Assembly (NCBI RefSeq): GCF_035594765.1
Contig: NC_085842.1
Coordinates: 160,407,036-160,471,035, forward strand
Direction: 5' to 3'
DNA from: Anolis carolinensis
Lineage: Eukaryota
DNA length: 64,000 bases
The position numbers and the translations under genes were made by a program. This document shows, piece by piece, positions 3 through 64,000 of the stretch. The stretch's first letter is position 1; each line of letters opens with the position of its first letter. Under the pieces are notes generated by a model. That model was not told where the DNA came from. It did not search any database and saw nothing but the letters and a program-made list of their open reading frames with translations.

Positions 3-3000
3 GTCTTAGCTGACACTAATGAGAAAGAAAATAAGGTGAGGGCAATTCTAGATGCCTTGGAATTTAGTTCTCCACCTGTTAATCTAAGGTCTGAGCCAAA
101 AGGAAATCAGTCTTCCTTATGCAGCCATGAGACCAATCTTTTAAAATCACCTGCTGTGGCACTTAGTCTTAAGTCCAACCGCTCTAGCCAGGTATCTAAA
201 CTAAGGGAGTGTGCATCATCTAAACATAGCCACTCTAGCAAGTCTTCTGCTGCTGGGAGTGCCATCTCTTCCCTAGCTGCCTTGCACATTAAGGAGGCTG
301 CACGTCTGGAGCTAAAGAGCAAGGTAGCGGGGGCGGAGGCTGATGCTAAGGCAGCTGATCTCACCCTTCCCTTTAAAGAAGAAGAGCAACGACTGCAAAG
401 CAAAATGCAAATAGAACAGGCCCAAAGGCAATGTGAAATAGAAATGCTTAGAATAAAGATGGATGCCGCAGCCAAAAGGGTAAGGGCTGAGACTTTGGCC
501 AAGGCCCTAATTGAGCCACTCACAGAAGAAAATGTAAGCCAGTTACCAATACAGGATCCTTCTGCCAAAGTGTTTGCGCACCTTGGCAGCATGAACAGCC
601 AGTTTTCGGATGAGGAACAGGGAGACTTCTCTCCTTACCCAGAGCAGGGCCCCAAAGTCACTTTTGAGTTTCCTGCAGAGCAGAGCGTCATAGCGGGGAG
701 CTCACCCTTGCTCGAGCTACCTGTGCCTCCTGCTAAAACCCTAGGTCAGTCAATCAGGGCCTCAAGGCCGAGTGCTAGTTGGCCCCTACAGACAGCTGCA
801 CAGGGAACCATCGATTCGTCAGTGGTCGATGTCATCCCTCCAAGAGGCCAAAGGTTGACGCAAGGTACACGGTGGGAGTCCACTCCACAACAGCAAACTC
901 CTCAATTGTTCCCTTCGACGCCAGAGTCCCAGCTTGTCTCCATCATCAGAAGCCCCAGAAGAGATCTTAAGGACAAGGGTGTCGAAAAGTTTTCGGACAA
1001 GCCTGAGGAATTTCTTCTCTGGAAGGCCACCTTCCAGAGAGCAATCAGAGACTTAAAGTTATTGCCTGAGGAAGAACTGACTCTTCTGGCTGCATGGTTG
1101 GGCCCAGCCTCATCCTCACAAGTTAAGAAGATCTACGCAGCCCACGTAGCCGATCCCGACAAAGCCCTGGAAAAGGCCTGGGCCAGGTTGCAGCAGAGGT
1201 ATGGGGCCAGCACAGAGATTGAAGCATCTCTTATGGACAAGCTCCAAAGGTTCCCAGCTTTAAAACTCAAAGACTTCAAACTCTTGTGGGACCTTAGCGA
1301 TCTCCTTACGGAATTAGAGTCGGCCAAGGAGAATCCAGAACTGCCCGGTTTGAAGTGCCTCGATCAGCACCTGTCCCAGAGGCAGATCTTGACCAAGCTG
1401 CCCTTCACTTTGCAAGAACGCTGGGGACAGGAGGTCTTCAACTACAAGGAGGCCCACTCCCAGGCATACCCTCCATTTTCTCATTTGGTCCAGTTCATCA
1501 CCAGGGCGGCCAGAGAAAGGAATGATCCGCAGACGGGCCTCCCCACCTTATACCGAGGGACCCATCCAGGGAAGGCATCTGAAGTGGACAAGAAACCACC
1601 TAGAGAGGCCAATAGACCTGTCAGCGTAAAGGCAGTCGAAACTCAGCACAGGGCCAACGAATCCAAGTCAGAGGTGAAGGAGGTGCTCTGCCCCATTCAC
1701 CAAAAGCCTCACAGTTTGGCCAACTGCCGGGAATTTGGCAAGAAGCCTTATAAAGAAAGACAACAGATTGTACAGAAGCTGGGCATATGTTTTAGGTGCT
1801 GTGGAGCAACTCCTCACTTTGCATCCAACTGCAAAGAGGACGTCAAATGCGCAAGGTGTAACAGCCTTAAGCATTGCACCGCGATGCACAACTCTGACGC
1901 TGTCTCCCGCGCCAAAGGGGACACGTCTTCCAAAGAAGGGTCATCTACTGAAGCCACCAACATGCAGACCGCGTCACGGATGCAGGAGGATGCCCCATCG
2001 GTCGCCTGTACTGAACTATGCTCTGACGTGCACCAGTTCAGAGTCTGCCATCCCATCTGCCTAGCAGATGTATATCCAGCCAGAAGACCTTGGCTTAAAA
2101 AGAGACTTTACGTGGCTTTGGATTCACAAAGCGACGCCTCCCTGGCGACTCCAGAGTTTTTCCAACTGTTTGACATAAAAACCCAGACGGTCGACTACAC
2201 CATGTCCACCTGTGTAGGGAAGAAGAAGTTGCAGGGTCGCATAGCATCCGGCTTTGTTGTCTCCTCTTGTGACCAGAAGAGACTGTTCGAGTTACCAGAC
2301 CTCATTGAGTGTTCCTCTATTCCCCGGAACAAAAGGCAGATTGTAACTAGAGAAGTTGTGGAGGCTCATCCACACTTGCGAAGGCTGAAGAACGCCTTAC
2401 CTGCTTTCCGTCCAGATGTGGACATTGCCCTTCTGCTTGGTGCGGACTGTCCGAACTTGTTCTATGTGAACGACCAAGTTAAGGGACCTCCAGGGGCGCC
2501 CATTGCTCAGCTGCTACCACTAGGCTGGACAGTTACAGGCCCAGTGTGCATAAACAAGATGCACCCACCATCGTCGTTGGACTCCAATCAAGCACAGGTG
2601 CTTAAAGGTGGACGTCCTACACTTGTGCGCAGTTGCCTAAGTCACATCTCAGTCTACTGCCAAGCAATAACTCCAGAGTATTCCTCCATCTTCAAAGTCT
2701 CTGAGAGAGACGAAGCCACAGCGCTCTCGAAAGATGAGCAAAGGTTTTCGGACATTATGAATGCTCAAGTCTCACGAAGTGCAGAGGTGAAAGCCTGCAA
2801 ATCAACCACAGAAATCAAGATGGGCCAAAGATCTTGCCTGGAACCACACCGTTTTGAACGTTTTTCGGAGTGGCACAGTCTTCTTAGAGCAGTTGCTAGG
2901 CTTATACATCGTTTAGCTTGCAAAGATAGTGAGCCTTTACAGGTCCAAGATATGATAAAGGCTAAGAGCGTCATATTCAAGTCAGTACAGAGATCTGCTT

Positions 3001-4319
3001 TCAAGCAGGAAATAGCTAGGCTAGAGCAAGGGCTCAACATCCCTAATCAAAGTCTTCTAAATGAGTTAAACCCATTTCTAGACAAGGAGGGTATTTTGAG
3101 AGTTGGAGGAAGGTTAGCCAAAGCTAAACTCAAGGCGTGCATAAAAAACCCCATCATCATACCCCCTAATAGTCACACTGCATTGCTGCTCGTTCGGCAT
3201 CACCATGAAAGGATCCATCATCAGGGTAGAACTCTAACTGAGGCAGCCCTTAGAAATGAAGGTCTGTGGGTAGTTAATGCCAAAAGGTTGGTCAACAGTT
3301 GTATTTTCAAATGTGTTAAATGCAGGCGCCTTAGGCGAAACTGTCAAAGTCAGTTGATGGCAGAACTACCTCAGGATAGGACTTTGACAGACCCACCCTT
3401 TTCCCATGTGGGAATCGATGTGTTTGGTCCTTGGGAGATTGTCACTAGGAAAACCAGGGGTGGTGTTGTAAATAACAAGAGGTGGGCAGTTTTGTTTACT
3501 TGTTTAGTAATACGAGCTGTCCATATAGAAGTCATAGAAGGGATGGACACTTCATCATTTTTAAACGCATTGAAAAGGTTCATAGCCCTCAGAGGGCCAA
3601 TTAAGTCAATTCGGTCGGACTGTGGCACCAATTTTGTAGGTGCGACCAAAGAACTCAATTGTGTGTCTAGGTTTGGGAGAGACCCAAAGGTTCAGAACTT
3701 TACGAATACTGAACAAATTATGTGGACTTTCAATGTTCCTCACGCCTCCCACATGGGTGGTGTTTGGGAGAGGATGATTGGTATTAGTCGCAAAATCCTT
3801 AATGCCATGCTTTTGAGTCATAGGTCATTGACGCATGATGTTTTGGTGACACTTATGGCGGAAGTTACCGCAATTATCAACAACCGGCCGCTGGTTCCCC
3901 TTACCAGTGACCCTGAGAACTTACAACCACTGACTCCTACACTTATTTTGACACAAAAGGTGCCAGGATGGAAGGACATCATGTTGCCAGTTCCGGACGG
4001 AACTCACCGTGCCCTGTGGAAACAGGTGCAGTCCTTGGCCAACCACTTTTGGAAAAGGTGGAAAGCTGAGTACTTAAGCCAGCTTCAAGCTAGAAGAATC
4101 TGGCAAAGCCCACAGGACAACATTGAGGTTAACAACGTTGTGTTGTTAAAGGACAAAGACTTGCCCCGCCATGCATGGCCCATGGGCATTGTATTAAAGA
4201 CCTTTCCTTGCCCGGACGGTAAGGTCAGGAAAGTTCAATTAAAGACTTGCAACAGAGGCAAAGTGTCCATTTTGGACAGACCAATTAGTGACCTCGTGTT
4301 GCTTATTGGAGATGTTTAA
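3..4319 (+). CDS. BEL/Pao LTR-retrotransposon polyprotein (Gag - triple zinc knuckle - aspartic protease - integrase), lacking RT and RNase H; 5' end runs off the window
   Basis: Frame is open from nt 3 to the TAA at 4319. Gag motif KFSDKPEEFLLWKATF; three Cys/His knuckles (CPIH..HSLANC, CFRCC..HFASNC, CARC..HCTAMH, ~1689-1890); protease ALDSQS (Asp codon 2121); LLLGAD..LGWTVTGP; integrase HHCC plus GIDVFGP / RSDCGTNF / GGVWER DDE triad; C-terminal FWKRWKAEYL..DGKVRKV typical of BEL/Pao. Confidence 0.95.
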   Translation, partial: VLADTNEKENKVRAILDALEFSSPPVNLRSEPKGNQSSLCSHETNLLKSPAVALSLKSNRSSQVSKLRECASSKHSHSSKSSAAGSAISSLAALHIKEAARLELKSKVAGAEADAKAADLTLPFKEEEQRLQSKMQIEQAQRQCEIEMLRIKMDAAAKRVRAETLAKALIEPLTEENVSQLPIQDPSAKVFAHLGSMNSQFSDEEQGDFSPYPEQGPKVTFEFPAEQSVIAGSSPLLELPVPPAKTLGQSIRASRPSASWPLQTAAQGTIDSSVVDVIPPRGQRLTQGTRWESTPQQQTPQLFPSTPESQLVSIIRSPRRDLKDKGVEKFSDKPEEFLLWKATFQRAIRDLKLLPEEELTLLAAWLGPASSSQVKKIYAAHVADPDKALEKAWARLQQRYGASTEIEASLMDKLQRFPALKLKDFKLLWDLSDLLTELESAKENPELPGLKCLDQHLSQRQILTKLPFTLQERWGQEVFNYKEAHSQAYPPFSHLVQFITRAARERNDPQTGLPTLYRGTHPGKASEVDKKPPREANRPVSVKAVETQHRANESKSEVKEVLCPIHQKPHSLANCREFGKKPYKERQQIVQKLGICFRCCGATPHFASNCKEDVKCARCNSLKHCTAMHNSDAVSRAKGDTSSKEGSSTEATNMQTASRMQEDAPSVACTELCSDVHQFRVCHPICLADVYPARRPWLKKRLYVALDSQSDASLATPEFFQLFDIKTQTVDYTMSTCVGKKKLQGRIASGFVVSSCDQKRLFELPDLIECSSIPRNKRQIVTREVVEAHPHLRRLKNALPAFRPDVDIALLLGADCPNLFYVNDQVKGPPGAPIAQLLPLGWTVTGPVCINKMHPPSSLDSNQAQVLKGGRPTLVRSCLSHISVYCQAITPEYSSIFKVSERDEATALSKDEQRFSDIMNAQVSRSAEVKACKSTTEIKMGQRSCLEPHRFERFSEWHSLLRAVARLIHRLACKDSEPLQVQDMIKAKSVIFKSVQRSAFKQEIARLEQGLNIPNQSLLNELNPFLDKEGILRVGGRLAKAKLKACIKNPIIIPPNSHTALLLVRHHHERIHHQGRTLTEAALRNEGLWVVNAKRLVNSCIFKCVKCRRLRRNCQSQLMAELPQDRTLTDPPFSHVGIDVFGPWEIVTRKTRGGVVNNKRWAVLFTCLVIRAVHIEVIEGMDTSSFLNALKRFIALRGPIKSIRSDCGTNFVGATKELNCVSRFGRDPKVQNFTNTEQIMWTFNVPHASHMGGVWERMIGISRKILNAMLLSHRSLTHDVLVTLMAEVTAIINNRPLVPLTSDPENLQPLTPTLILTQKVPGWKDIMLPVPDGTHRALWKQVQSLANHFWKRWKAEYLSQLQARRIWQSPQDNIEVNNVVLLKDKDLPRHAWPMGIVLKTFPCPDGKVRKVQLKTCNRGKVSILDRPISDLVLLIGDV

Positions 4320-4407
4320 AGTTCTAGTGTTTGTATTGTTGTGTATACAAAGGTGTTTGTATGTTTTTGATTGGTAAATTCCCACATCCTGGGAATTTAG
4401 CGGGGAG

Positions 4408-5122
4408 TGTTCCGTCCCCCAGGACGATGGTTTGCCTTACCTATTGGTCGTTTGTTTGTTTTCCCTCCTTTACATTTTGTTTGAGCCTCTGGCTGCAAAA
4501 GCCTAGGAAAAGTGGCTTGGAATCTGCAAGAGCTGGCTGCAGTTTTCTTTGCAGTGATTGGTCAAAGAGTGCAACATCTTAGGACCGCCCTTTTTACCAG
4601 GGTCTAGTCTCCATTTTAGAGTTTCATTCTGGCTATAGTCTTCCAACGTGCTGGAGCTGTGCAAGGCTAACTGGGACAAATCATCCTCAAAACCAGGCCA
4701 ATCTAAGCCTATCCAAATTAGATAAGTATTGAATTATACTGATCTGGAATAGGAATTCTAGTTAGAGGAGCAGGGTTATTCCATCGCTTCTAGAACTAAT
4801 CTTTGCTGTAAAGATAGGGAAGAAAAGAGTTTCTCCTTCTAATATAGACAGCGTGATTAGGGTATAGTGGTTTTATAATCACCTTTGCCTTCTGGAACCA
4901 GGGATAATTCTGCAACTAAAACCTATGGAAATTTGTTTCATTTTCTGCAACTTTAAGATCTGTGCCAGGTTTACAACCTTGTATGAATAAACATCCTTTT
5001 TGAAGTTATCCAGACTCAGTCGTTCAATATCTATAGGACAGCTTATAGGGATTTGCAGTTCGCCCGGATAAAGGACAGCACGTTTCAGTTTTATAGTTTT
5101 TTATTGTCCGGCGGACGGCACA
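4408..5122 (+). mobile_element. 3' LTR of the BEL/Pao element (715 bp)
   Basis: Follows purine tract AGCGGGGAG (4399-4407). Starts TGTTCCGTCC and ends GGACGGCACA (TG..CA termini, 9/10 inverted repeat). AATAAA at 4986-4991. Confidence 0.88.
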
Positions 5123-5190
5123 CCACTTATCAATAGGTGTAGTTGCCATGATCTTGGTTTTCTTGACGTTTAACTGCAACCCAGCTTTAA
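5123..5190 (-). mobile_element. RTE/BovB LINE fragment (insertion target of the BEL element)
   Basis: Translates to KAGLQLNVKKTKIMATTPIDKW, matching the BovB post-RT motif (GLKLNIQKTKIMASGPITSW), and stops exactly at the LTR end. Confidence 0.75.
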
Positions 5191-7065: not shown

Positions 7066-8135
7066 AATAGAATCATAGAATAGAGTTGGAAGAGACCTCA
7101 TAGCCATCTAGTCCAACCCCCTGCACAGAGCTGTCCTTAGGTAATTCCCCCCCGCCCCCCGGCAGTGCGGGGGGCGGGGCCAGGCAGGGGCAGGACCAGT
7201 ATGTCTGAGAAAAATATGCTTCCAATCTTCCAGTTGTTGGGAATACCATGACAGAGGACCCCACATAGCAACTGATAGGGATGCCCATGCTGAAATCCTT
7301 TTACAAGTGTTGCTTCTCCTCTTTGCTAAGTAGGAACGCTGGGTGTTACCTAAACTGTATTGCTTGAGGACTTGTCTCCTGAGTCTGGCTGCGGGGGGAG
7401 GGGGGGGGAAAAAAGGCCTGGAAAGGAGGAGAAGGAGGAGGGGTGGTGGCGCCATCCCCCCGGGGCCTCAACGGCACCCCGGGATGATGGCGCCACAGGC
7501 AAATGCTTCCCTCGCCTGGCGGTTGGACCGCCTCTGCCCCTGCAAGAAGCAGGAAATAGCATTCAAAGCACCCCCGACAGATGGCCATCCAGCCTCTGCT
7601 TAAAAGCCTCCAAAGTAGGAGCCTCCATCACACTCCTGGGCAGAGAATTCCACTGCCAAACAGCTCTCACAGTTAGGAAGTTCTTCCTGATGTTCAGGTG
7701 GCATCTCCTTTCCTGTAGTTTAAAGCCATTGTTCCATGTCCTAGTCTCCAGGGCAGCAGAAAACAAGCTTGCTCCCTCCTCCCTAAGACTTCCTCTCACA
7801 TATTCATACATGGCTATCATGTCTCCTCTCAACCTTCTCTTCTGCAGGCTAAACGTGTCCAGCTCTTTAAGCCGCTCCTCATAAGGCTTTTTACTCCTGA
7901 CCCTTGATCATTTTAGTTGCCCTCCTCTGGACACATTCTAGCTTGTCAACTGCGGTGCCCAGAATTGGACACAATATCCCAGGTGAGGTCTGACCAAGGC
8001 AGAATAAAGGGGGAGCATGATTTCCCTGGATCTGGACACTATTGATGCAGGCCAAAATCCCGTTGGCCTTTTTTGTGGCTGCATCACATTGTTGGCTCAT
8101 GTTTAACTTGTCCATGAGGACTCCAAGGTCTTTTT
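7066..8135 (-). mobile_element. CR1 LINE 3' portion, interrupted by a hAT MITE
   Basis: [60 protein letters not shown]; (ATTCTATG)-type tail at the left end. Confidence 0.9.
7126..7536. mobile_element. GC-rich hAT-type non-autonomous element inside the CR1 3' UTR
   Basis: Perfect 8-bp TSD CCCCTGCA (7118-7125 and 7537-7544); imperfect TIRs CAGAGCTGTCC / GGACCGCCTCTG. Confidence 0.8.
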
Positions 8136-32031: not shown

Positions 32032-32379
32032 ACCTTTGTCCACTGGCTTACGAGGAGGAGGAAGAATGGATGGTAATACAGTACTACCGTTACACCTCTG
32101 ATAAATAGCTGTCATCCGTATCCGTCCTGTTTGCCCCACCAGCTCAATAGACATCTTGAGCAATGATCAATGTATGTGCCACCAAAGAACTGGGATATTG
32201 ATACTTCTGTTTGATGTTTTGATTCATGTCAGATATAACAGATTGTGTTTTTCATTTACTGTAATTTTAGTTAAGTCATAATTTGCTTTTATATGTTGGG
32301 TTGTCAATTTTCGTTATTATGGGTGTATTGTTATGTTCGGGCATTGAATGTTTGCCCTTTATGTTTGGAATCCGCCCTC

Positions 32380-32763
32380 AGTCCCTCCGGGGAGATAGGG
32401 TGGAATATAAATACAAATGATGATGATGATGATGAGTCCCTCCGGGGAGATAGTGTGGAATATAAATACAAATGATGATGATGATGATGAGTCCCTCTGG
32501 GGAGATAGTGTGGAATATAAATACAAATGATGATGATGATGATCAGTCCCTCTAGGGAGATAGTGTGGAATATAAATACAAATGATGATGATGATGATGA
32601 TGAGTCCCTCTGGGGAGATAGTGTGGAATATAAATACAAATGATGATGATGATGAGTCCCTCTGGGGAGATAGTGTGGAATATAAATACAAATGATGATG
32701 ATGATGATGAGTCCCTCTGGGGAGATAGTGTGGAATATAAATACAAATGATGATGATGATGAT
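32380..32763 (+). repeat. Minisatellite of 7 units (~55 bp), each an L2-type 3' stem-loop plus (GAT)n
   Basis: AGTCCCTCTGGGGAGATAGTGTGGAATATAAATACAAA(TGA)n starting near 32380, 32435, 32490, 32545, 32603, 32655 and 32710. Confidence 0.92.
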
Positions 32764-33799
32764 TATTAATGGCTGTTGAAACCAAAGAGATAGGTGTTGG
32801 TGACAGGATTAGCATGTAATACCATTGAGAGCCACTGGAGGTCCAAAGACAACAGCACCAGGGTCGTTTTTTAAAGGCTTAGCACTGAGAACCCTTCCAG
32901 ACAAGCCCTATATCCCAGGATCTGATCCCTGGTTTTCTGTTTATCCCAAATTATCTGGCAGTGTAGACTAATATAATCCAGTTTAAAGCAGAAAACCAGG
33001 GATCAAACCCTGGGATATAGGATCTGTCTGGAAGTGAATAAGGTCTAGAAAAGTTACACGTGAAGCTTTATTGGCCCAAAGTTAAGCGATGGAGACACTT
33101 GCAACAGTTTTGCAGCCTTGTCTTAGTCCACTTAGTACAAGCCTGTGACAAAGAAGCTTCTTTTTACAAAGTTCAAAATGTCCCATTCTGGCCTTCTACT
33201 GACATTATTTTTTCAACATTAGCCTTTCGCAGATACTGCATCAGGACTAGAGAAACAGACTTTCAGTGCCCATTTCAGAAAATTCTCTCAAGTGTTCTCT
33301 AGAAGATTCACGTTTTATTTAGTTGTGCAAGGCTTACCTGGCTTACTCGTGTCATTTCACATGTGTGAAATAGAAAGTTGGCTAAAACACATTGAATTGC
33401 CCTTTTTTTGTGGAGTAGCAACTTATCCTCCTTCTTTCCATGTTCTGCCTCTAGTGCCAAAGTTTCAGTTAAAGAAGTGAAACCAAGGAATACATTGACA
33501 TTGTTATGTGATATGTAATTCTACTGAGCCCTTAACTTTGGGGTGTGGATGGGATCCAAATGTTGCTGTTCTTGTTAAGTTGAATTTAATTAATGACAGC
33601 TATGAACGACAGACTTCCAGATCACTCTGTAATCAAGTGCCTGACTTATGTTTTGAAGACTGAGGAGCTCTTGCTTCCTTGATGGAATCTATTAATCTGA
33701 AATGCAATATTTCACCACTGCCTTTGACTTTAACAAGCATTATTGTCTTTTCTAGTGGGTCACGCCTTCTCATGGTATTTCCAAAATATGACATTCTGA

Positions 33800-45809: not shown

Positions 45810-46982
45810 ATAGGTTGTTGTGATTCTTCCGGGCTGTATGGCCATGTTCCAGAAGCATTCTCTGCTGACGTTTCGCCCACATCTATGGCAGGCATCCTCA
45901 GAGGTTGAAGGATCATGTTATAATTTATTCTTGTTCCAAGGTAGGAGTTATTATGTTTGAATTTGTTGCTCTGTCAAGACACTGAATGCTTGATTTTTTA
46001 TTTGTTGGAATCTGCCCGAAATCCCATTGGGGAGATAGGGTGGAATATAAATAAAATTTATTATTATTGGGTTGCTGTGAGTTTTCCGGACTGCATGTCC
46101 ATGTTCCAGAAACATTCTTTCCTGACGTTTCACCCACATCTATGACAGGCATCCTTGCAGATTGTGAGGTCTGTTGGAAACTAGGAAAGTTTATAGATCT
46201 GTGGAAAGTGGGAGAAATAACTCTTGTCTGCTTGAGTCAAGTGTGAATGTTGCAATTGGACAACTTGATTAGCATTGAATGGCCTGACGTCTAGATCCAG
46301 GGAAATCATGCTACCCCTCTATTCTGCCTTGGTCAGGCCACACCTGGAATACTGTGTCCAATTCTGGGCACCCCAATTGAAGGGATATGTTGACAAGCTG
46401 GAAAGCGTCCAGAGGAGGGTGACTAAAATGTTCAAAGGTCTGGAGAACAAACCCTATGAGGAGCGGCTTAAAGAGCTGGGTATGTTTAGCCTGCAGAAGA
46501 GAAGGCTGAGAGGAGACATGATAGCCATGTATAAATATGTGAGGGGAAGTCATAGGGAGGAGGGGGCAAGCTTGTTTTATGCAGCCCTGCAGACTAGGAC
46601 GCAGAACAATGGCTTCAAACTACAGGAAAGGAGATTCCACCTGAACATTAGGAAGAACTTCCTCACAGTGAGAGCTGTTCAGCAGCAGAACTCTCTGCCC
46701 CGGAGTGTGGTGGAGGCTCCTTCTTTGGAGTCTTTTAAGCAGAGGCTGGATGGCCATCTGTCAGGGGTGCTTTGAATGAGATTTTCCTGCTTCTTGCAGG
46801 GGGTTGGACTGGATGGCCCGTGAGGTCTCTTCCAACTCTACGATTCTATGATATTATGATTCAGTTTCAAAGCCTGGCTGCTTCCTGCCTGGGGGAATCC
46901 TTTGTTGGGAGGTGTTAGCTGGCCCTGATTGTTTCATGTCTGGAATTCCTCTGTTTTCTGAGTGTTGTTCCTTTATTTACTG
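45810..46982 (-). mobile_element. Penelope pLTR fragments, the second split by a CR1; near-intact hammerhead at 45864-45904
   Basis: Penelope sequence stops at ~46285 and resumes at ~46862. Confidence 0.75.
46289..46860 (+). mobile_element. Young CR1 LINE 3' end
   Basis: Open 166-aa frame [33 protein letters not shown], then the ATTCTATG tail. Confidence 0.92.
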
Positions 46983-57272: not shown

Positions 57273-57587
57273 ATTATCATTATTAGTGCCTCAAATTCAC
57301 AACTGGCCAAGACCCACCAATATTAAGCACATCTCTCTTTTTCTCTAAAAAGAGGGACCTTGTTGGGCTTTCACTCCTATTTACAACTCTTAGCAGGTGA
57401 ATCTGGCTGATCGGAAGCCCCCCAGCGAAGTCTATGGTTAACGGAGGAATAACTTCTTGGATCTCCCAGGGCCCAGTCCATCACCCTAACCACTAAAACC
57501 ACACTGAGAATCCCTGTTTTGGAAAATGACTATTTTGGGATTCCTGTTTCCTATAGCCCTGCTTTCCCCACTCTGTGAGCTACTTAC

Positions 57588-58091
57588 TGGTCGCAGAACT
57601 CGCAGGACTTCGCTCAGGACTCTGGCTGTGTTCTTCACAGAGCACAGCACCAAAGTACAAACCACCACGTCCACCGAAGCATCTGGTATTTGGTGCAAGT
57701 CCTCGGCTGCTGCCACTATGCAACTCTCTAGCTTTACATGTGGATTCTTAGACAGGTTCTTGTCAAGATATTTCTGGAAGTTGGGGTTAGGGTCAGTGCA
57801 TATAACCTTGCATCCTGTAGGGTAGAACTCAAAGTTGGTCCCAGTTCCTGTGCCAATCTCGAAAATTGTAAGTCTTCCTGCAGGGCTTGCAAAGTCAGAG
57901 AGGTTGCTGAAAAGATCCTTCTTCTTGGCAGACATCTTGCTGTTGTAGTGGACAGAGAAGGAATCCATAAAATAAGGGAATGCTTTTTTGCAAAGGGGAT
58001 CCCACAATCCTAGGTAACACAGCAAGTAAACAGGGAGAGCACAGAAGTGGACACATAATCTAAGTAGGGCAACTAGAAAGTTAGTTTCCAT
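57588..58091 (-). CDS. METTL7A: METTL7A/TMT1A-like copy 1, exon 1
   Basis: ATG at 58091; hydrophobic N-terminal anchor; SAM motif EIGTGTGTNF; VDVVVCTLVLCSV; RVLRP|GTAAGT; 246 aa in total with exon 2. Confidence 0.92.
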
Positions 58092-58560
58092 GTTGACAAG
58101 AGACAAAAACTACAGAAAGAGGAAGCCGAGACAAAATAAAAGTCTCTGTGGGGTTTGGGGAGGAGTTAGTTTTTATCTGTTGCTTCCAGGGCTTTTTAAG
58201 GGGCCAATCAGATACAGCCACTCGTCCAGAAATAGTGTGATATGTGGCCAAGGCAGAACAAACAAAGTCCTTGGCAGCAGCTCTGTAGTTGCTGGTATGT
58301 CTCATATTAGAGGCACAGTTAGTTCTCTCAAGATTATGTAACAGAAAATTTTGCACTAAAGACACGGTTTCCAAACTGTCCGTAAAACTTTGTTCATATT
58401 TTCAGAGAAACTGTTGCATTTGTGGGAGCTACAAACAGAACTTGTGTAGAATTTGTGCTACCTCTTCTATCTCCATGGGATCCAGCTTTTCTCAGGCAGC
58501 AATTGGGAGTGGGGGGCTACATCCACACCACTTTAACTGCCATAGCTAAATCCTATAGAA

Positions 58561-59816: not shown

Positions 59817-61290
59817 AGAATCATAGAATCATAGAGTTGGAAGAGATCTCGTGAGCCATCCCGTCCAACTCCCTGCCAGGAAGCAGGAAAATCACATTCA
59901 AAGCACCCTCGACAGATGGTTATCCACCCTCTGCTTAAAAGTCTCCAGATTAGGAGCCTCCACCGCAGCCCGGGGCAGAGAGTTCCACTGCTGAACAGCC
60001 CTCACAGTGAGGAAGTTCTTCCTGATGTTCAGGTGGAATCTCCTTTCCTGTAGTTTGAAGCCATTGTTCCGTGTCCTAGTCTCCAGGGCAGCAGAAAACA
60101 GGCTTGCCCCCTCCTCCCTATGACTTCCCCTCACATATTTGTACATGGCTATCATGTCTCCTCTCAGCCTTCCTCTTCTGCAGGCATGTGTCCAACCCTT
60201 TAAGCTGCTCCTCATAGGGCTTGTTCTCCAGACCCTTGATCATTTTAGTCACCCTCCTCTGGACACCTTTCAGCTCGTCAACATTTCCCTTAAGTTGCGG
60301 TGCCCAGAATTGGACACAGTATTCCAGGTGTGGTCTGACCAAGGCAGACGCAATAATCCAATGGTATTTATGCAGGTCAACATCCCATTGGCTTTTTTAG
60401 CTGCCACGTCACATTGTTGGCTCATGTTTAACTTGTTGTCCACGAGGACTCCAAGATCTTTTTCACACTTACTGCTGTAGAGCCAGGCATCCCCCATTCT
60501 GTATCTTTGCACTCCATTTTTTCTGCCGAAGTGAAGTATCTTGCATTTGTCCCTGTTGAACTACATTTTGTTAGTTTTGGCCCATCTCTCTAATCTGTTA
60601 ACATCGTTTTGAATTCTACTCCTGTCTTCTGGAGTGTTTGCTATCCCTCTCAGTTTGGTGTCATCTGCAAACTTGATGATCGTGCCTTCTAACCCTTCAT
60701 CTAAATCATTAATAAAGATATTGAACAGAACCGGGCCCAGAACGGAACCCTGCGGCACTCCACTCATCACTTCTTTCCAAGATGAAGACGACGCATTGGT
60801 GAGCACCCTTTGGGTTTGTTCATTTAACCAATTACAGAACCACTTAACTGTAGTTTTGCCTAGTCCACATTTGACTAGTTTGTTTGCCAGAAGGTCATGG
60901 GGGACCTTGTCGAAGGCCTTACTGAAATCCAGATACGCTACATCCACAGCATTCCCTGCCTCTAGTAAGAGATCAAATTAGTCTGGCATTACATGTTTTT
61001 GATAGATCCATGTTGACTATTAGAGATGACCTCATTTGATTCTAAGTGTTTGCAGACCACTTCCTTAATGATCTTTTCCAGCTTCACGTCGATACCAGGC
61101 AAATATTGGGATAGTTGAAATTGACCATGGCTTTCTCTTTTTTGTGCCTGTTTGGTCAACTGTTTACCGAAGGCTTTGTCGAATTCTTCAGCCTGGCTTA
61201 GAGGTCTGTAGCAGATGCCCACGACGAGATCCTTTTGAGTCCCATTTCCCTTGATTCGTATCCAGATCACATATGTGTTTTGATGTTCAA
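59817..61290 (-). mobile_element. CR1 LINE ORF2 (endonuclease remnant fused by deletion to RT and the 3' end)
   Basis: VVGICYRP (EN); LDFSKAFDKV, GVPQGSVLGP, KFADDTKL (RT); ATTCTATG tail. Confidence 0.92.
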
Positions 61291-62363: not shown

Positions 62364-63170
62364 AATGGCCATGGCTCAATGCATGGAATCATGGGACATG
62401 TAGTTTGGTGAGGCACCAGCACTTTTTGGCAGCGAAGGCTAAAGAGCCTACAAAATTATATCTCCCATTATTTCGTAGCATTGAGCCTTGGCTGTTAAAA
62501 TGGTGCCAAACTGTATTCATTCTACAGTGTAGATGTGCCCTGTGTTGATATTGTCATGACTCATGACATCAACTTTTTCTACAGGTGACAGGCATTTTTC
62601 CCCAGTGCATGATGCACCATTTAAAAATATGATGGGCTCACTTTCACCTCAAACTTTGACCAGTTTTATAACAGTTTAATTGAATTGCACTTTTGAAAGG
62701 AATTGTATGAATTCTACTTTAGAGAATTTTTAAATGTGAACTTAAAAAAAACCCAAACAATAACCTTGCTTTCTTTTGCCTGAACACTAGATTCCCAGAT
62801 AAGGAAGCAGATGTGAAAGCACTTTAAGTGCCCACACTGCAGATATGCCAGACATATAAAACACCCCTTCTATTTTTTTAAAAAATGACACCCACAAAGC
62901 ACAGATGTTGGACTATGGGTGGTGCATAGTCCTGATTTTAATCCACATTCTGTCAGGCAGGTGTCTTTTATTCCTGCTCTCATGTGGACACTTTCATTTC
63001 AAACAAGGTACTGTTACTTTAAGAGATGACTGCCAGAGAAACCCGGATATATTGTGACTATTTAGGGAGGAAGCAAAGCAGGGAGCATCAGGAAGCAAAT
63101 GCTCAAGAGAGAGAGAGTCACAGAGCTCCATCTGCTTTGCAAAGAAGCTGATTGAAATAGATTTCCTAGC

Positions 63171-63668
63171 ATGGCGGTGCTGATCTTTCTCTGCCAAAGA
63201 TGCATCCAGCTCCTTGCACTTCCCATCTTTGTGCTGTCCTTCCTTGGTTTGTGGGATCCTATGTGCAAAAAGGTTTTCCCGTATGTCATGAACAAATTGG
63301 CCAGATCGTACAATGTGAAGCTTCACAAGGAGAAGCAGCAACTGTTCAGTAATTTGAAGGACTTTGCGGGTTCATCAGGCCAACTCTCTCTGCTAGAAAT
63401 TGGCTCCGGCACCGGGGCCAACTTTCAGTTCTACCCATCTGGCTGCCGAGTGACTTGCACAGACCCCAACCCCAACTTCAAGGATTTCCTGGCAAAGAGC
63501 ATGGCTGAGAACCAGCACCTCCAGTTTGAGAACTTTGTGGTGGCCCCAGCGGAGGACCTGCGGCTTGTGTCAGATGGGTCTGTGGATGTCGTGGTTTGCA
63601 CGCTGGTGCTCTGCTCTGTGAGCAATGTCACAACTGTCCTGAAGGAAGTCCTGCGGATACTCAAACCT
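63171..63668 (+). CDS. METTL7A: METTL7A/TMT1A-like copy 2, exon 1 (exon 2 beyond the window)
   Basis: AGCATGG Kozak context; EIGSGTGANF; VDVVVCTLVLCSV; RILKP|GTAAGT; 166 codons. Confidence 0.92.
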
Positions 63669-64000
63669 GTAAGTATGAGGGAATGATACGGGAAGGCATT
63701 TGTAATAGGACTAGGTTCACCAAGCCTAGGAACCTTTGGCCTTCCAGATAGTTTCGGAGGAGACAACTCCCTCTGGCAGGCCAAAGATTTCCTGCTTCTG
63801 CAGTGTGTGAAGGATTTATGCAATAAGGCACACTACGGGTTTATCTACATTGCAGAATGAATGCAGTTTGATACCACTTTAATTGTCTGTCATGGCTCAA
63901 TGCTATGAAATAATTAGAGCTGCTGTTTTAGAAGTTCTTTAGCTTTCGCTACCATATTGTGCTGGTGCTTCATCAGACTATAACTTCTATGCTTCCATAG

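Follow-up and report, generated by a model that had tools for sequence, protein, structure and literature searches.

Can a retrotransposon that has lost its polymerase still spread, and by what means? The question is raised by a 64,000-nucleotide stretch of the Anolis carolinensis genome (the window), at the 5' edge of which lies a BEL/Pao retrotransposon with a single frame for Gag, protease and integrase and no reverse transcriptase (RT) or ribonuclease H (RNase H). An earlier note, made from the letters alone, had suggested an RT-less element that borrows RT in trans, as one half of a two-component system. The present analysis supported this suggestion: the published family NC-1 includes RT entries, and in a frog both components were found side by side. 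With a probability that we put at about 0.9, the element belongs to a non-autonomous lineage whose missing RT and RNase H are supplied by complete relatives packaged in the same particles.

An open frame without RT and RNase H

The frame ran from position 3 to 4319 of the plus strand, on which the features of the element lie, and comprised 1438 codons without a stop (more than 1430 had been claimed). The remaining five frames over the same interval contained 37–101 stops each. The element is cut by the 5' edge of the window, which leaves the 5' long terminal repeat (LTR) and about 111 N-terminal codons (by comparison with P0003) outside. The protein collection searched held no exact match to the window protein.

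A Pfam scan of the frame returned DUF1759, Integrase_H2C2 (weak, E 0.083), rve and DUF5641, and neither RT nor Peptidase_A17; for comparison, Peptidase_A17 was matched at E 4e-42 in a full-length frog relative. Domain profiles made from 40 full-length BEL proteins matched the aspartic protease (aa 682–846, positions 2046–2540) and the integrase core (aa 1131–1300, positions 3393–3902). Across the whole window, in all six frames, these profiles matched neither RT nor RNase H, in line with the absence of both enzymes claimed before. An autonomous element carries a YxDD RT and RNase H between protease and integrase; neither was found there. Alignment to three full-length relatives, as the earlier note had proposed, sized the deletion at about 559 aa (about 1.68 kb), covering all of RT and RNase H, at aa 926/927.

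What remained was that of a BEL/Pao element: a single frame with Gag first, then protease, and integrase last. Gag contained a capsid-type region (DUF1759, aa 330–437, positions 990–1313, below the curated cut-off) and three Cys/His knuckles (aa 563–575, 596–610 and 616–629, within positions 1689–1889), the columns of which were invariant in the alignment. The integrase ended in a DUF5641 region (aa 1339–1434, positions 4017–4304), and the nearest relatives were all BEL/Pao elements. The catalytic residues listed earlier were all present, namely D707 of the protease (Asp707 at position 2121), H1068, H1073, C1104 and C1107 of the HHCC zinc-binding motif (positions 3204–3323), and D1139, D1206 and E1256 of the integrase core. 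H1068, C1104 and C1107 were invariant in a protein alignment.

An AlphaFold model of aa 677–1438, built with a 32-row alignment, had a mean predicted local distance difference test score (pLDDT) of 75. The protease formed a high-pLDDT block, and the deletion junction fell in a stretch of pLDDT below 50 between the well-modelled protease and a well-modelled, mostly helical domain that precedes the zinc finger (about aa 946–1056, positions 2838–3170). This helical domain was kept in Anolis forms A, B and C and in the frog form, which are described below. The top structural matches of the integrase part were foamy-virus and Ty3 integrases.

The in-frame junction, designated form A, occupied positions 2780–2787. 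The earlier note had placed a possible microhomology at 2781–2786. A loose contig end in the public run X18 carried downstream parent sequence that shares 2782–2787 with the window; the demonstrable overlap is thus 2782–2787, and the upstream side is deduced from protein only.

At the 3' end, a short polypurine tract (4399–4407) adjoined a 3' LTR of 715 nt (4408–5122) with TG...CA ends, a terminal inverted repeat matching at 9 of 10 positions, TATAA at 4874 and AATAAA at 4986. Its borders were also marked by loose contig ends at 4408 and 5122/5123 in the public runs. The earlier statement that polypurine tract and LTR termini are intact held for the tract and the 3' LTR; the 5' LTR lies outside the window. 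A putative downstream half of the target-site duplication (5123–5127), proposed from the loose contig ends, lies inside another repeat. The element as a whole sits in this repeat (5123–5188), other copies of which extend both upstream of 5123 and downstream of 5188 with sequences in common. In X1, X2 and X3, other contigs continued past 5122 with GT, not the TGG expected of a primer site for a tRNA 3' end; the sequence after the LTR end in these contigs is likely the 5' LTR-internal border. The window contained no second copy of the element and no tRNA genes.

Copies, mosaics and parentage in Anolis

The closest proteins were Anolis carolinensis gene models, in four clusters with 16 records, all of which were read. 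The junction of the window (form A) was present in 11 of the 16, nine of them NCBI records on five chromosome-size contigs (25–369 Mb) and two from MetaClust; one form A record stopped just past the junction. The other five records (LOC134298220, LOC134293969, LOC134299107, LOC134295953 and LOC134299662), on five contigs, shared a second junction (form B) that removed about 440 aa of RT and RNase H. YxDD was absent from all 16. An essential enzyme was gone, and yet the form had amplified at many loci, as in a non-autonomous element.

The junction was also looked for in public runs. In X1, a 942-letter contig (2537–3478) spanned it with 2 differences. Contigs in X2 and X3 (2537–2793) matched without differences and ended 6 letters past the overlap, below the 31-letter rule for bridging, and no contig across the junction was present among the X18 records listed. 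The depth of the junction contig relative to a gag contig (594/623–1577) was 0.77 in X1, 0.92 in X2 and 0.77 in X3, and that of the LTR contig was 1.4–2.8 times the gag contig across the four runs; the flank of the element had zero cover in X1. Two distinct flanks preceded the LTR start in X3 and X18. Contig depth is a rough guide and gives no copy number, but the pattern is that of a multi-copy element, of which form A probably makes up the larger share. The window copy itself had 2 private residues in 1438, which on sequence grounds marks it as a young copy.

Some further variation was seen among the copies. An in-frame loss of 60 nt early in gag (window 51–112) was present in all four runs and in P0004, P0005, P0130 and P0131, and short repeats of the EQARRQSEMQ type in gag differed in number between records. 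P0006, a third BEL-derived Anolis model, has a partial RT, is annotated within a host gene model and stands as a single member; it is probably a decayed copy.

To describe the variation, 16 sequences were aligned (the window, 10 form A and 5 form B records; the 210-aa fragment P0126 was left out). The variation came in blocks, with alleles 71–88% identical to one another and present in many combinations. Among the 11 form A sequences, the four-gamete rule was violated by 36 of 1120 pairs of sites less than 30 aa apart and by 3579 of 10598 pairs more than 200 aa apart. Mosaics of LTR elements usually come from co-packaging and template switching. The mosaics here would reflect the same process, in a lineage still passing through reverse transcription; gene conversion is an alternative source.

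The 66 residues before the junction were 94–100% identical within form A and 79–80% identical to form B. In X1, X2 and X3, the form A allele continued into the junction within one contig, and no branch was present among the loose ends listed. With the pre-junction segment 20% away from form B and no branch listed, form A probably came from a sister lineage of which few or no complete copies survive; it would have outlived its direct parent and now ride on a diverged sister lineage.

Candidate helpers and recurrent losses

The integrase of the window agreed, by eye, at 178 of 180 residues with the integrase entry of NC-1, a Sinbad-superfamily family of Anolis carolinensis with 397 elements, more than any other BEL/Pao family had in a survey of 62 genomes (de la Chaux and Wagner 2011, PMC3118150). 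The NC-1 entries include RT (YVDD) and Peptidase_A17/RNase H, and as published NC-1 is listed with RT, whereas RT is absent from the window copy and from all 16 of its related protein records. The main text of that paper uses none of the words 'non-autonomous', 'lacking' and 'missing'. Clustering there was by nucleotide matches of at least 500 bp (PMC3118150), from which it follows that RT-bearing members exist in the cluster; neither their number nor a link to the gag of the window follows from it. A complete NC-1 helper likely exists.

Recent activity of the clade was indicated by another study, which in the part available reports 9391 polymorphic BEL insertions in anoles, whose mean frequency is below that of every other LTR clade (Bourgeois and colleagues 2020, PMC7561263). 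Many polymorphic insertions at low frequency imply that BEL was recently active in anoles. The 718-bp BEL entries of that study are close in length to the 715-nt LTR of the window.

In a second Anolis BEL family (P0065, P0134–P0141), 49% identical, 7 of the 9 records had undergone a separate in-frame loss of about 432 aa that affects RT and RNase H (form C). The frog Anomaloglossus baeobatrachus had a cluster of 35 RT-less records; all 15 of those listed (P0162, P0307–P0320), together with P0071, shared a 451-aa loss. Thirteen RT-less frog proteins of 1487 aa were 98.3% identical to three full-length proteins of 1938 aa from the same species (P0070, P0145 and P0147), from which they differed at 11 shared residues, 9 of them adjoining the junction. 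This is the cleanest pair of helper and derivative found in this analysis. Like the lizard form, the frog cluster has lost RT and RNase H in frame, has kept Gag, protease and integrase, and occupies many loci. It differs in its breakpoints, in being about 39–47% identical to the lizard protein, in having a visible helper, and in being known from gene models alone.

Complete losses were found in 6 of 119 proteins with both protease and integrase in the near-relative set and in 7 of 125 among the 50% representatives. Outside the lizard and frog families, all complete-loss proteins were single-member clusters; five of these and P0066 came from Trematomus, Synaphobranchus and four ENA contigs, and they may be chance deletions or model errors. 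Pairwise mapping of breakpoints in 10 proteins was clean in 5, split in 3 and gave none in 2. Outside Anolis, complete losses seemed more frequent relative to partial ones than expected (7 of 16, against an expected share of 0.23, p 0.055); this was not counted, since the search favours complete losses. The amplified in-frame losses number four in two vertebrates, three in the anole and one in the frog, and RT/RNase H loss is recurrent in Sinbad-like BEL/Pao elements.

Elsewhere in the window, Methyltransf_11 was matched in two head-to-head frames, 57486–58109 (minus strand) and 63156–63686 (plus strand), which we take to be METTL7-like first exons. Positions 32365–32821 held a tandem array of 55-nt units in at least 7 overlapping copies. 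Three repeat copies, 90% identical, lay at 7554–7892, 46269–46784 and 59877–60172; the frame at 46269–46772 had no Pfam match, and the repeats presumably represent a LINE-like (long interspersed nuclear element) 3' fragment.

Explanations weighed and known systems compared

We propose the following course for form A. Whole domains were lost in frame between folded domains, probably by a jump between short homologies during reverse transcription. The junction spread to many copies, and these are block mosaics of diverged alleles, as co-packaging and template switching with continued reverse transcription would produce. RT-bearing kin of the same published family are the likely donors of the missing enzymes. 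The translated open frame would favour the element's own RNA in cis, as reported for the mouse element IAP 1Δ1, and the element's own integrase is the putative inserting enzyme in the last step. On this analysis, the Gag-protease-integrase protein likely helps its own RNA into particles. The account as a whole, in which borrowed RT and RNase H are combined with a predicted cis advantage from the element's own polyprotein, we regard as more probable than not.

Several observations weigh against parts of this account. The near, shorter and longer candidates and the 50% representatives included no protein of this Anolis family with an RT. The search for shorter proteins, made with the form B junction region only, gave 191 candidates and none significant, and the 13 matches among longer proteins included none from this family. 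The helper would rest on the published NC-1 cluster consensus, for which no physical link to this gag and integrase was seen. Gene models are biased to open frames. Forms B and C and the frog form are known from gene models alone, in which a predicted intron is possible; form A, on the other hand, is contiguous DNA here. A copy as young as that in the window needs no selection to keep its frame open. Among the 40 of 157 variant rows listed, 15 of 29 variants in the frame were synonymous (expected share 0.28–0.31, p 0.007–0.014), but outside two allele-swap blocks the count was 5 of 12 (p 0.23–0.30). The excess was rejected as a sign of selection after the deletion, because it vanished outside these blocks.

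In X2, X3 and X18, a joint between 3639 and 4026, absent from the window copy, deletes 386 nt (3640–4025) of the integrase core and shifts the frame; it holds about one third of the local depth. The same joint matches P0005, P0130, P0132 and probably P0131, that is, 3–4 of the 11 form A sequences. Its ends read GT..AG, it carries a direct homology of 6 letters, and the sequence there is about 15% diverged. That a sub-lineage without the integrase core has amplified implies that integrase is dispensable in cis. The second Anolis family pointed the same way, with an integrase core in 0 of 9 records.

These integrase data and the loss of the synonymous signal would suit a pure RNA parasite, in which helper proteins mobilise everything, the integrase is unused, and the frame stays open only because the copies are young, constantly recombine with coding relatives or escape nonsense-mediated decay. 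The crowding of diagnostic frog residues at the junction would suit it too, being explained by recombination with the helper as well as by selection. On the other hand, all four amplified losses stay in frame (though a protein search favours open frames), as does the 60-nt loss in gag; the sole frameshifting loss comes late, in the integrase; and the catalytic residues were kept in every record that covers them. We consider such a parasite possible but on the unlikely side. Still more tentative is a reading in which single-frame BEL/Pao elements have repeatedly been selected to shed RT and RNase H as a block: an RT-less majority would contribute surplus Gag, protease and integrase, the polymerase would come from a few complete copies, and the whole would form a divided, recombining element of two components. 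If this were true, most copies of the most abundant BEL/Pao family of the 62-genome survey would lack RT, and the lizard form would have outlived its parent by switching helpers.

A splicing route, in which full-length elements make surplus Gag-protease-integrase by splicing away RT and RNase H and the RT-less families are retro-copies of these RNAs (form B perhaps being no more than a spliced gene model), appeared improbable. The GT..AG ends of the integrase joint would fit it, and so would the form B junction, which reads K|V and is compatible with AG|GT. An X18 contig that begins 4 letters before the form B junction hints at two upstream paths, and the annotation that holds five form B models holds no full-length model. 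The form A junction, however, is not what a simple GT-AG splice of the observed parent sequence would leave, and the 6-letter direct homologies at both joints are typical of template switching. In the frog, moreover, the full-length copies are annotated unspliced and the 11 shared residue changes of the RT-less ones mark a separate genomic lineage. The two remaining explanations fared worse. A single chance deletion with a single-copy junction, which the earlier note had allowed for, is contradicted by the 11 of 16 records on five contigs, and early domestication is unlikely. One deletion multiplied by DNA duplication, or a domesticated host gene, would be in keeping with the single locus read as DNA, but the junction lies on five chromosome-size contigs, the copies are block mosaics, the LTR is preceded by different flanks, and the family has undergone a second, independent loss, which makes it very improbable. 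An assembly collapse or error we regard as scarcely credible: the region is repeat-rich and the best-matching public DNA could be the source sample, but two sources yielded 11 further protein records with the junction, and a public-run contig bridges it.

Our reading of the element remains that it borrows both enzymes from complete relatives. Non-autonomous LTR elements and the family NC-1 were known already; what appears to be new is an amplified Gag-protease-integrase BEL/Pao element without RT and RNase H, and its repeated origin. RT is the domain used to find, count and classify LTR elements, and an abundant, young, RT-less and integrase-bearing class is therefore easily missed or merged into a full-length consensus. 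NC-1 seems to be a case of RT-less copies folded into such a consensus. The four losses are natural replicates of what LTR elements supply in cis and what they borrow, and bear on the balance of Gag and polymerase in single-frame elements and on whether such derivatives are parasites or partners. As the frog helper and its derivative are 98% identical, these questions can be tested by sequence alone.

No description of an RT-less, integrase-keeping BEL/Pao element was found in the open-licence literature; Repbase and Dfam, outside that scope, may note it. The accounts of mosquito elements, in the portions available, describe no such class (PMC3442997, PMC3286476). Among plant elements, wheat RLG_Sabrina and RLG_WHAM and barley BARE2 are alike in being partly coding, in co-evolving with an autonomous partner and in switching partners by template switching. 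Sabrina and WHAM, however, are without RT and integrase and BARE2 is without Gag; none of them, as far as the available text goes, combines a retained integrase with the loss of RT and RNase H (PMC9744471).

The closest analogue is mouse IAP 1Δ1. According to the sections available, it too has an internal deletion, one open fusion frame and helper proteins supplied in trans; it outperforms its helper, and its fusion protein acts in cis (PMC6466679, PMC7411935). It differs in being a class II endogenous retrovirus with a 1.9-kb deletion into gag and pol (PMC6466679, PMC7411935). Here, by contrast, Gag and protease are whole, and RT and RNase H alone have been lost, at domain borders and several times independently.

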